Position numbers and translations under genes: made by a program. Positions 7,332-29,955 of a DNA stretch of 64,000 bases are shown piece by piece (within the stretch, counting starts at the first letter, position 1; every line of letters begins with the position of its first letter). The notes under the pieces were generated by a model, which was given only the letters and a program-made list of their open reading frames with translations, ran no database searches and had not been told where the DNA came from. The DNA is from Bdellovibrionales bacterium (lineage in GTDB: Bacteria > Bdellovibrionota_C > UBA2361 > SZUA-149 > JAGRAN01): NCBI GenBank assembly GCA_020434585.1, contig JAGRAN010000032.1:11013-75012 (forward strand), read 5' to 3'.

Positions 7332-8420
7332 TTATTGGGGAGAATTGTCGTTTGTGGCGACCTGTGTACTTCCTGGGGTTGATGAAAGCGGATCGTTTGA
7401 GCCAGGTCTGATATCTACTCTACTTTTAAATAGCTCGCGAATTCTCAGTTCCCCCGGAATAAGCTGCTCGCGTGCTAGCCAATAGTAAATTTCTTCAGCC
7501 GCAATCCGATGTCCGATTTCGTTAGGATGAAAATCGGTACCGACAATCGTCTGCATTCGGTCCAGGGGGAGTCCGAAGTACGCGGAGAGCAAGTCCAGCG
7601 TAAGAATATTTAGCTGTCTTAAAACTTGCTGCACCTTTGTATGAAGTTCGGTGAAGGGATAATTCTTGTCGAGCGGCATTCCGAAGAGGGGAAATATAAC
7701 TGCCACAACTTTGGCGCCATTGGTGGAGCCAATATCCGCGATAGATTTGAGTGCTCCGGTAAATTCGGCCCAATTCTTCTGATCGTCGAACAGTTTGTAG
7801 TAGTAATCGACGTAGGCTTGTCTTGTTTGATGATTGTGAATTCTCGTGGCGACGAAGTTTGCGAGTTTTGAATGTGACAATAGTCCTGTGCCTGTATCGC
7901 CAGAGCCCAGCTTAAAAGGATTAGTTCCACCTTTCCAAAGTCCGTGGGGTCTGAAAGGTTTGCGCTCTGGATCGTTTAAAGTAATTTCGACGATAATTAA
8001 ATCGGCACCGTCACGTTCGGCCGCGAACTTTGCACTTCTTATTTCGTGCATAGTTGAGTATCCGGGGACTCCGTAATTAAAAACTTCAGCGCGAATCGGG
8101 CTAACATTCAAATTAAGCATGCGTTCGAGTCTTTTGGGGAATGCGTCGTCGAATTGCATGTTTGGAGCGAAGGTAAACGAATCGCCGAGCACAGCTATGC
8201 GAAAAACACTGCCATCAGTATTCTTCGGTTCGATCGGATAGTCTTGGAAGAACTTCGACGCTTCGGGTTTGTAATATGCCTGCGGCCGGTCGTTTTTTAA
8301 GGTAGGAGTTCCGTCGTCGAAGGACCAAAAAGCGGCTTCGACAAGGCCGAGCACGACAAAAATAGACGCTGTGCACAAACTGATTGCGACAAGGCCGGAT
8401 TTTAAGGCTGAGTAAATCAC
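7332..8420 (-). CDS. membrane-anchored SGNH/GDSL hydrolase (paralogue 1)
   Basis: GTG start. N-terminal TM is LVAISLCTASIFVVLGLV. Block I is IAVLGDSFTF, a mid block is NYGVPGYS, then EITLNDPE, and block V is DFHPNEIGH. Confidence 0.75.
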   Translation of the reverse strand: MIYSALKSGLVAISLCTASIFVVLGLVEAAFWSFDDGTPTLKNDRPQAYYKPEASKFFQDYPIEPKNTDGSVFRIAVLGDSFTFAPNMQFDDAFPKRLERMLNLNVSPIRAEVFNYGVPGYSTMHEIRSAKFAAERDGADLIIVEITLNDPERKPFRPHGLWKGGTNPFKLGSGDTGTGLLSHSKLANFVATRIHNHQTRQAYVDYYYKLFDDQKNWAEFTGALKSIADIGSTNGAKVVAVIFPLFGMPLDKNYPFTELHTKVQQVLRQLNILTLDLLSAYFGLPLDRMQTIVGTDFHPNEIGHRIAAEEIYYWLAREQLIPGELRIRELFKSRVDIRPGSNDPLSSTPGSTQVATNDNSPQ

Positions 8421-8621
8421 TAAACTAACACTGGTTTTTGGATGATTCCGCGCCGGTTGTTAGCCCCGGCTACCAGCGCGCGATTATATGATGAAGGGCG
8501 AATGTTTTCCAGGCCAATCCAAATTACGTCGCACAGGCAAGTTTATTGTGAATCCTGTAGCTACAGTCTGTCTATGCGCGTATAAGATACGAGAGCTTGA
8601 ACTTAGTATTGGACTGGAGCG

Positions 8622-9692
8622 ATGATCTGGAACTGGCTCGAATTTGGCTGTGTATGGATCGCTTGGTTCGGGCTTACCGGCTTTTGCGTGATTGCCGGCC
8701 GGAGCGATCTTATCTATTCAAGGCGCGTTCGCGAGTCAGTCGGCAACCTACTTTTGGTCATTTTCTCGTTTACGTTCGTGCTGTTCGCTGTGGAGAGCTG
8801 GTTTTTTATTTATCCGATTGCGGATGCCAGGATTTATAGCAAGACCGCCAGCAGATGGGGATATAAGTACTGGGGCGAGAAGAATTCGTTTGGATATAGG
8901 GACAGAGAATACACTAGAGATCGTTGTGGATCTGTTCCTTTACTCGCAGTAATCGGAGATTCGTTTGCAGCCGGATGGGGAGTCAAGGATCGCCGTGAAC
9001 GATTTGTGAATCTGATCAGAGACGCTCTTGAGCCGCAGATGGAGACGGTGCTGATCGGGGACTTAGCATGGGATTCTAAGAAAGAACTGGACGGGCTCAA
9101 GGCGTATCCGTGCAAGCCTGACGTAGTGATTCTCAGTTACTATTTTAACGATATTTTCAATGAGGCAGTGAGCCAAGGTGTGGTTGCAGCTCCTCAGCCG
9201 ACCCCGGCCCCAAAACTGCTTCGGCCCTTAGTCGATCATTTTTACCTATTTGATTTCGCGTGGACCATCTACGATCGCCGATTCGGAGGTCATAGCGGCG
9301 TAGTTGAGCTAATTGAAGCAGCGTTTAATTCGAAGGAAGTGTGGGCTGCTCACAAGCAACAACTGAAAGATATTGTGAAGTATACAAGAGACAACGAAAT
9401 AAAATTGATTACAGTAATATTTCCTGTGCTATCTGCGGTCGATGTGACAAGAAAGTTTGCGCATCAGGTAGCAGAAGTATTTGTGGAAGAGGGCATAAAG
9501 ACAATCGACTTGTCGTCTGAGCTATCGATGTATTCCCCTCGCCAGTTAGTTGTCAACGCGTTTGATAGTCATCCAAATGAATTTACCAATCGCTTAGTCT
9601 TTGAAAGCTTGAGTGAAGAACTTTTAAAATTAAAAGAAGAGAGCGCTTCTCGAGCTAGCGAGCCTCCCGCGCGATTTGTCGGTGAAATGTAG
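8622..9692 (+). CDS. membrane-anchored SGNH/GDSL hydrolase (paralogue 2)
   Basis: Two N-terminal hydrophobic segments. Block I is LLAVIGDSFAAGWGV, then SYYFNDIF, and block V is FDSHPNEFTN. Confidence 0.75.
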   Translation: MIWNWLEFGCVWIAWFGLTGFCVIAGRSDLIYSRRVRESVGNLLLVIFSFTFVLFAVESWFFIYPIADARIYSKTASRWGYKYWGEKNSFGYRDREYTRDRCGSVPLLAVIGDSFAAGWGVKDRRERFVNLIRDALEPQMETVLIGDLAWDSKKELDGLKAYPCKPDVVILSYYFNDIFNEAVSQGVVAAPQPTPAPKLLRPLVDHFYLFDFAWTIYDRRFGGHSGVVELIEAAFNSKEVWAAHKQQLKDIVKYTRDNEIKLITVIFPVLSAVDVTRKFAHQVAEVFVEEGIKTIDLSSELSMYSPRQLVVNAFDSHPNEFTNRLVFESLSEELLKLKEESASRASEPPARFVGEM

Positions 9693-9700
9693 TCTTTGGT

Positions 9701-28099: not shown

Positions 28100-28142
28100 A
28101 CCGCCATGAAATCAAACTTCTGACGTTATGTCTCGTCTAAGT

Positions 28143-29285
28143 TTACTCGGCCGAGTTGTAAACCGCTTCGACCACTGCTTCTGCAGCAGCCTGATTTCCC
28201 TGTGCGGTCCAGTGACCATCGCATGCCAGGTAGAGATCATCGATATCGATCTTGTGCCTGTCCGCGTAAGCCTGAAGGTGCGGCAGCAAGTCCACTACCT
28301 CGACATTAGAATGCTGGGCCGCGAACTTTTGCAGCTCCTTAACAATTCGAAAATCATATCCCGCTTTGTGCAGTTTATCGAAGTCGGATTGTCGTGGAAT
28401 AATAAAAATAGTGAATCGCTTGTCCGGAGCAAGCTCGGCAATATTTTCGTATCCGAAGAGCAAACGCTTCAAATCCAGGTCGGAAAATCGATCATAGGTG
28501 CTTTGCAATTCTCCGCTCGATTCGGATTCGGTTGCGACGCTGTTTTTGTTGTAAATTTGTGCGCTGCGGCGGATTACGTTTAACAAATATATATTGTTAT
28601 AAAGAGTTCGTCTGACTGCTCGTGCGGTGCTAAACCCCTTAGGTTTATCTCGGTGTTCAAAATCAACTGTGTAGAACAGCTCCAAGTTTCCTGAATCGGT
28701 TTCACGCAGATAAGGTCGGTAACGACCAGGAGAGAAGTTCGACGGATTGTTGTCGCGGAAGTCGTTTGCCGGCAGATGAAACAGCAGGACGTCGCTGTGA
28801 TCGAACTTTGAGGCAAGCTCTCTGTACAGCAACCACTCCTGGGTTGAACTGAAATCCCCTGAAGTTCCGAAGTTCAACTGCTCGATGCCGGTTGCCGCTT
28901 CGACGAGGTCGGTCATCCTTTGTTCGGCGTTTACCCCGATGCCTTCAACAAAGGAGTCGCCAAGCACAACAGCTCGGCGTGCTGCGTCAGAGTGCCTGGA
29001 GCGCTCTTTGTCCCGCGCTCCATATGAGTTTGATTGATATATGGCATCGTAGCAGGGGGCGAAATGATGGGTCTCTCGGTTTGGGTAATGCCACACGCCA
29101 AAGTGTTCGTTATTGTCGCCATAAAATCTTTTAGTTGCGTCAGTTGTTGGGAAATTGCCGATGGGAATGTATCCCGCCGCTGCCGCGGCACGCACCAAAA
29201 GCTCGGCGCAAACTAGGATGAGCGCATAGACAGCGGTCATTGTCAGGCGTGGGTGCCGCTCGTACCAGCTAGTTGTTTGTGTCAT
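28143..29285 (-). CDS. membrane-anchored SGNH hydrolase (paralogue 4, AlgX/AlgJ-like block V)
   Basis: TM is AVYALILVCAELLV. Block I is AVVLGDSFVEGIGV, then NFGTSGDFSS, HLPANDFRDN, and block V ACDGHWTAQGN. The start is uncertain: TTG 29327, ATG 29285 or ATG 29240. Confidence 0.7.
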   Translation of the reverse strand: MTQTTSWYERHPRLTMTAVYALILVCAELLVRAAAAAGYIPIGNFPTTDATKRFYGDNNEHFGVWHYPNRETHHFAPCYDAIYQSNSYGARDKERSRHSDAARRAVVLGDSFVEGIGVNAEQRMTDLVEAATGIEQLNFGTSGDFSSTQEWLLYRELASKFDHSDVLLFHLPANDFRDNNPSNFSPGRYRPYLRETDSGNLELFYTVDFEHRDKPKGFSTARAVRRTLYNNIYLLNVIRRSAQIYNKNSVATESESSGELQSTYDRFSDLDLKRLLFGYENIAELAPDKRFTIFIIPRQSDFDKLHKAGYDFRIVKELQKFAAQHSNVEVVDLLPHLQAYADRHKIDIDDLYLACDGHWTAQGNQAAAEAVVEAVYNSAE

Positions 29286-29955
29286 CGTCCGCCAGGCTTT
29301 CTCTTCGCTGCATCGTGTGGATCGCAACTAAATGTGCGACCAAAATTGCAATGTACATTTGTCCAACGATCCCCTCAAGTGCAGCAAGAGTGCGTCCGAA
29401 CTCCGTCAGTGGAGCGATGTCTCCATAGCCTACGGTGGAGAGTGTAATGAAACTGAAATATAGAAAAAACGAAGTCGGTTCTGAAGGAAGACCGTTAGCT
29501 GGATCGAGGCCAGTGAAAGAGCCGGGGTTTAGCACTTCCAGCGTCATGAAAATGAAGGAAAACGAAACACCAATCAGCAAGTAAACACAAACGGAGCCGA
29601 GAATAGTATCTGCGCTTACTGTTTGCTCACGAACTAAGCGGGAAAGCATTAGGGTTGCGATAAAGGAAAAAAATGTAATCTCTACTAACAGCGTCGCAAG
29701 TAAGATAGGACGTTCCGCCACAATTGAGCTTGCAGCGATTAGCGCAACGCCAAGAAAGCCCAAGGCCGCAGCGGCAACAAAATGCTTCCGTTCTGAGCTA
29801 ACCGAATATACGCCCGCAGCCAGCAAAAGCGTGAGCGCGAAATGAAGCATATGACTTAGAGCCGGGGTTTGACGGACGATAGGTGCGAGCAGCATCACTC
29901 CGAAGAGTGCTAACAGCAGCAGTAAATATCTGTTTTTGTGGCTCAGTTTTCTCAT
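29269..29955 (-). CDS. potassium channel (pore-loop family, no RCK domain)
   Basis: The selectivity filter TLSTVGYGDIAP lies between the last two of about six TM helices. Confidence 0.8.
   Translation of the reverse strand: MRKLSHKNRYLLLLLALFGVMLLAPIVRQTPALSHMLHFALTLLLAAGVYSVSSERKHFVAAAALGFLGVALIAASSIVAERPILLATLLVEITFFSFIATLMLSRLVREQTVSADTILGSVCVYLLIGVSFSFIFMTLEVLNPGSFTGLDPANGLPSEPTSFFLYFSFITLSTVGYGDIAPLTEFGRTLAALEGIVGQMYIAILVAHLVAIHTMQRRESLADDDTNN

Follow-up and report, generated by a model that had tools for sequence, protein, structure and literature searches.

Four predicted membrane-anchored SGNH-type enzymes in an envelope-glycoconjugate gene region of a Bdellovibrionales bacterium

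Introduction

Why does a 22-kb portion of one bacterial genome carry four genes for enzymes of the SGNH/GDSL kind, and what could these enzymes be doing there? The question is raised by a 64-kb stretch of contig JAGRAN010000032.1 from a Bdellovibrionales metagenome-assembled genome (MAG), which is hereinafter called the window. A preliminary description of this DNA had delineated four open reading frames (ORFs) for such proteins, and all four were found in the ORF list exactly where they had been placed: S1 (7332..8420, minus strand, 362 aa), S2 (8622..9692, plus strand, 356 aa), S3 (15719..16849, plus strand, 376 aa) and S4 (28143..29285, minus strand, 380 aa counted from the ATG). The length range given earlier, 356-394 aa, is right at its lower end, which is S2, and not at its upper end, 394 aa being the length of S4 when read from an upstream TTG at 29327; the NCBI annotation has the 380-aa form.

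To a large extent, the finding is an ordinary one because three of the four genes already carried an SGNH annotation: an exact-sequence look-up gives S1, S2 and S4 at NCBI as "SGNH/GDSL hydrolase family protein" and S3, with a shorter start, as "hypothetical protein KDD66_04040". The four genes are uncharacterised additions to a known kind of enzyme. So what can be learned from their assembly in one region? Judging by their sequences, the four proteins are anciently diverged subfamilies of one superfamily that have been brought together, and the reading that we favor, at a probability only slightly above even, is that they are inner-membrane-anchored esterases or transacylases that face the periplasm and have glycoconjugates near the membrane as their substrates. 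On the present evidence, the gain lies mainly in refined annotation: S3 moves from "hypothetical" to SGNH enzyme, an architecture common to the four, with a conserved glutamate in the anchor helix, is described, and the idea of a local expansion tied to a flagellin is dropped. Two features appear modestly interesting, namely the conservation of this anchor-helix glutamate and the recurrent pairing with genes for glycosyltransferases of the GT-C type.

Catalytic blocks and membership in the SGNH superfamily

Are the four proteins homologous, and are their catalytic residues in place? The columns that are invariant in a four-way MAFFT alignment comprise the G-D-S of block I (residues 79-81 of S1, encoded by nucleotides 8178-8186, 112-114 of S2, 121-123 of S3 and 109-111 of S4), the glycine of block II (G117 in S1), the N-D of block III (149-150, 176-177, 191-192 and 174-175, respectively) and the histidine of block V (H298, H317, H352 and H358). 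Both the GDS motif and the internal N-D block that had been noted in all four proteins are thereby borne out, the latter as a single aligned column. The D-x-x-H block that had likewise been ascribed to all four is found in S3 only (D349-x-x-H352, DQCH), the other proteins having D-x-H: D296-x-H298 in S1 (DFH, with DFHPN covered by nucleotides 7521-7535), D315-x-H317 in S2 (DSH) and C355-D-G-H358-W in S4 (DGH). The GDS, N-D and block-V His positions align across the four proteins in MAFFT and in profile alignments alike.

The same residues stand out within the families to which S2, S3 and S4 belong. Family alignments were made for S4 (A2, 265 hits), for S3 (A3, 406 hits) and for S2 (A5, drawn from an exhaustive HMMER search that yielded 2802 S2 relatives), and GDS is invariant in all three. 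In the S4 family, the invariant residues include GDS109-111, G143, N174, D175, H358 and W359, with D356 conserved at 90% or more; in the S3 family, they include GDS121-123, N157, D192 and D349, with N191 and H352 at 90% or more; in the S2 family, they are E58, R93, D94, G112, D113, S114, D177 and H317, with N176 and D315 again at 90% or more. Comparison of profiles with hhalign links S1 to the S3 family (99.0%, E 4e-18), the S4 family to the S3 family (98.7%, E 2.5e-16, 337 columns) and S2 to the S3 family (98.5%), in each case over almost the whole protein length. The aligned catalytic residues together with these probabilities of 98.5-99.0% confirm that the four are homologous enzymes of the SGNH type. 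Furthermore, when all six-frame ORFs of the window are searched with the hidden Markov models of the three families, each model recovers precisely S1-S4 and no other protein.

The generic Pfam model Lipase_GDSL_2, with its curated threshold of 32.9 bits, is exceeded by S1 (42.6 bits, E 1.2e-10) and S4 (34.7 bits, E 3.3e-8); S2 falls below the threshold (23.7 bits, E 7.9e-5), and S3 gives no match to this model at E <= 1. For S3, an AlphaFold2 model was obtained with a mean predicted local distance difference test score (pLDDT) of 94.0 and a predicted template modelling score of 0.90, and this predicted structure has the three-layer alpha/beta/alpha SGNH fold. The SGNH acyltransferase domains score lower against it (PatB 12.4, OafB 11.9, OatA 11.8); the model is nearer in structure to hydrolases than to PatB, OatA and OafB.

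From the generic SGNH/GDSL hydrolases, such as those of Lipase_GDSL_2, RiCE17 (6hfz) and CgnD (8a2n), a soluble leader-peptide hydrolase of a RiPP pathway (PMC10070186), the window proteins differ in having an N-terminal helix with a glutamate and a beta prelude; S2-S4 differ, in addition, by an NSxGxRD motif, and S1, S2 and S4 by D-x-H in place of D-x-x-H. Weak matches, which involve the prelude with block I and the C-terminus, connect S4 (E 2.4e-11), S3 (E 2.9e-7) and S2 (E 1.7e-6) with the NCBIfam models LA_2490 and LA_2486, hypothetical equivalogs described as SGNH/GDSL-type esterases of Leptospira; because the scores are 16-44 bits against cut-offs of 300-325 bits, S2-S4 are to be placed outside these two families, of which we found no mention in the literature. 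Taken together, a Ser/His/Asp triad is plausible in all four proteins, with a D-x-H spacing in S1, S2 and S4 that departs from the D-x-x-H form, and the four are probably active as enzymes since the residues of the putative triad and those of the oxyanion hole, the block II glycine and block III asparagine, are intact.

Membrane anchor, prelude and topology

Each of the four had been described as having one N-terminal transmembrane (TM) anchor; an anchor is indeed present in all, with the correction that S2 has two hydrophobic segments. The common layout predicted from the sequences is an uncleaved N-terminal helix, a short beta prelude and the SGNH core, which in all four contains a helical insert of about 100 residues between blocks III and V. 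In the S3 model, the N-terminal helix is predicted to span residues 8-40. The prelude carries the NSxGxRD motif in S2 (NSFGYRD, 88-94), S3 (NSLGFRD, 97-103) and S4 (NSYGARD, 86-92); that of S1 is devoid of it.

A glutamate is conserved towards the outer end of this helix, E58 in S2 (within the second hydrophobic segment), E34 in S3 and E28 in S4, which is invariant in the S3 and S2 families and conserved at 90% or more in the S4 family. It often forms part of an ExxxR motif (E34xxxR38 in S3, E28xxxR32 in S4). S1 has Glu28 within its anchor helix, but this residue makes no conserved column in the four-way alignment. The presence of a conserved acidic residue within a membrane anchor suggests that the helix might do more than tether the enzyme.

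On which side of the membrane would the catalytic domain lie? The mean number of lysines plus arginines in the 15 residues before and after the last TM segment, calculated for each family, is 3.80 versus 0.91 in the S2 family, 2.63 versus 1.47 in the S4 family and 3.07 versus 2.40 in the S3 family, which amounts to a positive-inside bias that is strong, moderate and weak, respectively. In addition, two cysteines, C78 and C355, are conserved in the S4 family, a pair compatible with a periplasmic disulfide. In view of this charge bias across the last helix and of the cysteine pair, an N-in/C-out orientation is likely, which would put the catalytic domain on the periplasmic side, near the surface of the membrane. 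The periplasmic placement assumed in the preliminary description is favoured by the charge bias in the S2, S3 and S4 families, weakly so in S3.

Relatives of the four proteins

Could the four genes have arisen by a fourfold expansion on the spot, as had been proposed? Pairwise identity among S1-S4 is 24-28%, whereas foreign relatives reach 72% for S4, 64% for S3 and 37% for S2. In particular, the 265 relatives of S4 are 35-72% identical to it, and a Methylocystaceae MAG is among their sources; S3 has an orthologue at 64% identity and a paralogue at 46%, KDD66_07740, on a different contig with the same locus-tag prefix; and the relatives of S2 retrieved with HMMER are at 30-37%. S1 scores 79 bits against foreign proteins of the S2 family and 42 bits against its neighbour S2, and no close S1 relatives turned up when JGI metagenome contigs were scanned by pattern. 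The four proteins are not one another's nearest relatives, and because of this, the local expansion has to be given up. As far as sequence comparison goes, each of S2, S3 and S4 is part of a widespread family in which its closer kin are found in other phyla, the lineages represented including Methylocystaceae, Verrucomicrobia, Limisphaerales and Deltaproteobacteria.

Gene neighbourhoods

The region in which S1-S4 sit is a conserved envelope-glycoconjugate region, with GT2, GT39, GT-C-like and Wzy_C/ligase-like genes. At one edge, convergent with S1, lies a gene (6562..7323, plus strand) for a GT2 glycosyltransferase that resembles polyprenyl-phosphate-sugar synthases (Pfam Glycos_transf_2, E 4.4e-22); among the NCBIfam models it comes nearest to AglJ, PpgS and dolichyl-P-hexose transferase, without reaching the curated cut-off of any of them. 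S3 opens a tightly spaced run in which it is followed, after 42 nt, by the gene for M536, a 536-aa multipass membrane protein of no known family (16891..18501, plus strand), and then, with an overlap of 20 nt, by that for GTC533 (18482..20083, plus strand), a multipass membrane protein that is GT-C-like, a status as yet unproven: it gives no match to Pfam and no sequence match to the PDB, and its profile link to the GT39 group is weak (hhalign probability 23.5%, E 8.6e-4). The run is closed by a rhodanese gene (20080-20454, plus strand; Pfam Rhodanese, E 5.2e-19) and a gene of the fatty-acid hydroxylase family (20300-21259, plus strand; Pfam FA_hydroxylase, E 5.2e-29). On the opposite strand follows a Wzy_C or O-antigen-ligase-like membrane protein (21256..22965, minus strand; Pfam Wzy_C, E 2e-15) and, 43 nt 3' of S4 and in the same orientation, a membrane glycosyltransferase of the GT39/PMT_2 variety of GT-C enzymes (26666..28099, minus strand; Pfam PMT_2, E 3.4e-7), which is also named glycosyltransferase family 39 at NCBI.

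Three syntenic loci help to tell the conserved from the variable. In L011, genes for a 525-aa protein of no assigned function (U525; 9701-11278, minus strand, in the window) and for a TraU-like protein (664 aa; 11306-13300, minus strand, in the window; a weak Pfam TraU match, E 1.2e-5, in the C-terminal region) are divergent from an S3-M536-GTC533 run, with tblastn identities of 58% and 79%, respectively, and the S3 orthologue overlaps M536 by 8 nt. No conjugation genes are found near the U525/TraU-like pair. L014 and L015 share the gene order M17 peptidase-S4-GT39, with a K+ channel gene between the peptidase gene and S4 in L015; in L015, S4 and GT39 overlap by 8 nt, and in L014, GT39 is followed by genes for a Ser/Thr kinase, Wzy_C, GTC533 and M536. 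GTC533 has orthologues in both L011 and L014; the rhodanese and fatty-acid hydroxylase genes appear to be absent from the L014 gene list. For S3 and S4 alike, an operon-like linkage to genes of the membrane-glycosyltransferase type is conserved.

Between the TraU-like gene and S3, the window has a gene for a 645-aa flagellin with an FG-GAP insert (13729..15666, plus strand; Pfam Flagellin_N, Flagellin_C and FG-GAP_3), to which the SGNH genes had been linked by the preliminary description. This link is not conserved: L011 contains no flagellin gene at this place, its S3 operon and its TraU-like gene being immediate neighbours, so that flagellin had to be rejected as the target of modification. 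The S1/S2 edge of the region varies as well. Adjoining the U525 orthologue of L011, at the place that S2 occupies in the window, is a TM-anchored SGNH gene of yet another, fifth kind (3144-4235, minus strand) in which GGS replaces GDS, and this substitution of one SGNH type for another suggests that this place is a variable SGNH slot.

Beyond these loci, neighbours were counted for the S4 family in 80 loci from metagenomes, of which just 36 have at least 1.5 kb of flanking sequence on both sides. A PMT_2-type GT-C gene immediately adjoins the S4-family gene in L133 and L142 (with a 9-nt overlap), L165 (a 56-nt gap), L164 and L117. A gene of the S3 family begins 4 nt past a PMT_2 gene in L177, and in L010 and L176 the distance between PMT_2 and SGNH genes is no more than about 6 kb. 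The pairing of SGNH and GT-C genes accordingly recurs in unrelated contigs, and by a rough estimate it looks commoner than random adjacency. SxtJ-like proteins are encoded next to the S4-family gene in 7 of the 80 loci and Wzx-like flippases in four. In the literature, we found nothing on a link between SGNH proteins and GT39 or ArnT.

Possible functions

What role would accommodate these observations? Under the reading that we favor, S3 and S4 would be co-expressed with the adjacent GT-C-type genes and would take acyl groups off, or shift them on, a glycan, glycolipid or lipid-linked sugar close to the membrane, the acyl-bearing substrate being the one that the neighbouring GT-C transferases handle. 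They would act without an MBOAT or AT3 relay, and an esterase or deacylase would be likelier than an O-acetyltransferase of the AlgJ/PatB type; S1 and S2 would stand apart as variable additions at the region's edge. A hydrolase role is preferred on the grounds that neither MBOAT nor AT3 occurs in the window or its syntenic relatives and that the S3 model lies nearer to hydrolases. When the substantial ORFs of the window were compared with Pfam and NCBIfam, no MBOAT, AT3 or GtrA came up, in agreement, as to MBOAT and AT3, with the preliminary description, and the gene lists of L011, L014 and L015 contain no MBOAT or AT3 either. Their absence had been called odd; it need not be odd if the proteins are hydrolases or GT-C-linked enzymes, and the combinatorial acyl decoration of a single polymer that had been proposed along with it is unsupported. 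If the link with GT-C is real, widespread membrane-anchored SGNH families would be accessories of GT-C-dependent periplasmic glycosylation, and in many phyla the pathways of envelope glycoconjugates would gain a deacylation or transacylation step.

Several observations weigh against this reading. GTC533 is GT-C-like but not a proven GT-C protein; the charge bias behind the predicted topology is weak for the S3 family; the D-x-H-W block of the S4 family is that of the acetyltransferases AlgJ, AlgX and PatB1; and a partner of the MBOAT or AT3 kind could be encoded elsewhere than in the 64 kb covered here. Moreover, a GT-C neighbour is present in about 5 of the 80 S4-family loci, most members elsewhere being without one, and a carbamoyltransferase is the commoner neighbour (11 of 80), for which reason these SGNH families have to be considered promiscuous in their genomic context.

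The competing views are best weighed with these points in mind. The proteins could be O-acyltransferases of the AlgJ/PatB/DltD type that act on a surface polysaccharide, with the MBOAT or AT3 donor encoded elsewhere in the genome, which is in essence the model of the preliminary description and a scheme in line with the fact that MBOAT plus SGNH and AT3-SGNH are the two established bacterial systems of polymer acylation, both of which operate via an acyl-tyrosine relay (PMC12148441). The profile of the S4 family does match AlgJ (4o8v, E 4.6e-6), AlgX and PatB1, extracytoplasmic SGNH-like enzymes with which it has the D-x-H-W block in common, and Pfam ALGX matches S4 in part (E 2.6e-5; 24.5 bits against a gathering threshold of 26.5; profile positions 81-132 alone), there being no Pfam ALGX match in S1-S3. 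Among the four, S4 comes closest to AlgJ. AlgJ is membrane-anchored too, and the D-x-H spacing found in S1, S2 and S4 is typical of AlgX and AlgJ. However, in AlgX and AlgJ the D-x-H precedes the serine, whereas in the window proteins the blocks follow one another in the usual way, from Ser at the start to His at the end; the match is confined to the block V region; no MBOAT lies near S1-S4, and only 1 of the 80 S4-family loci has one, at 1.2 kb from the SGNH gene; and the comparison of the S3 model with PatB, OatA and OafB points the other way. The AT3-SGNH fusions, such as OatA and OafA/OafB, are different again: the window proteins have no AT3 domain, fused or adjacent, and a single anchor helix (two in S2) cannot provide the acyl-tyrosine relay (PMC12148441). 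S1-S4 have 1-2 hydrophobic segments as opposed to the 10-11 TM segments of an AT3 domain and give no significant AT3 match; S4 shows a sub-threshold match (E 0.019) to the AT3-associated SGNH domain PF19040. Long homologues in the S2 family were considered as AT3-SGNH fusions and rejected, their N-terminal extensions being without a match to any Pfam family. On balance, we regard the acyltransferase scheme as unlikely for the set of four, and an AlgJ/PatB-like transferase role nevertheless stays a live rival, especially for S4.

The source being a Bdellovibrionales MAG, the enzymes might instead be lipases of a Bdellovibrio-like predator, used in predation or lipid turnover on phospholipids or lipid A; an active site at the membrane surface would suit lipids, and the S3 run includes a fatty-acid hydroxylase gene. 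Yet the families span Methylocystaceae, Verrucomicrobia, Limisphaerales and Deltaproteobacteria, most of which are not predatory, the proteins stay attached to the membrane of the producer rather than being secreted, and the conserved neighbours are glycan-related, all of which makes this view quite unlikely. Another candidate that comes to mind is a new membrane acyl-relay pair made of S3 and M536, which would replace MBOAT or AT3. M536 sits next to S3 in the window as well as in L011, is confidently modelled by AlphaFold2 as a multipass protein (mean pLDDT 92.7), belongs to a family with invariant polar and aromatic residues and has no match in Pfam, NCBIfam or PDB sequences. Against the pair, the M536 family has members in no fewer than 112 species genomes from many phyla, customarily beside AsnB-type amidotransferase and GT2 genes, and among 80 M536-family loci from other phyla, none has an SGNH gene of the S3 or S4 family within 6 kb; the sole whole-length PDB resemblance of the predicted fold, a weak one, is to GGCX, the vitamin-K gamma-carboxylase, not to an acyltransferase. 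Such a pair therefore seems highly improbable. M536 is neither an MBOAT, nor an AT3, nor a GT-C protein, and the proposal that it is a hidden MBOAT/AT3-like acyl donor for S3 was rejected on the strength of the same three findings: no family match, a fold that resembles GGCX only, and weakly, and 0 of 80 loci.

A further reading is more speculative. It might be, although we would call it a long shot, that bitopic SGNH proteins with the invariant anchor-helix glutamate form an unrecognised, self-sufficient class that has GT-C partners and requires no MBOAT or AT3 relay. That such a class would work on the outer side of the inner membrane, where it would strip an acyl group from sugars linked to polyprenyl phosphate or anchored to lipid, or shift one, is a conjecture of similarly poor prospects. 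By analogy, the class could be the periplasmic counterpart of the ArnD/NaxD step in the pathways of lipid A aminosugars, a parallel that we likewise consider doubtful.

Other features of the region and its relatives

The variable central region of the 645-aa flagellin consists of FG-GAP/VCBS repeats, and its NCBI name is merely "VCBS repeat-containing protein"; a second, ordinary flagellin gene is located at 33424-34881 (minus strand). Some of the S4-family loci (L009, L102, L103 and others) combine a carbamoyltransferase with an SxtJ-like small membrane protein, and L009 also encodes DUF5989, a trio that is reminiscent of the SxtI/J/K genes of the saxitoxin cluster. Elsewhere in the window, a single ORF of 572 aa (2638-4356, minus strand) fuses a GNAT acetyltransferase domain to a domain of the histone-deacetylase family. 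Finally, two DUF6502 genes lie about 6 kb apart (45206-46018 and 51731-52546, both on the minus strand), and a DUF6502 gene is also found near the S4 orthologue in L015.

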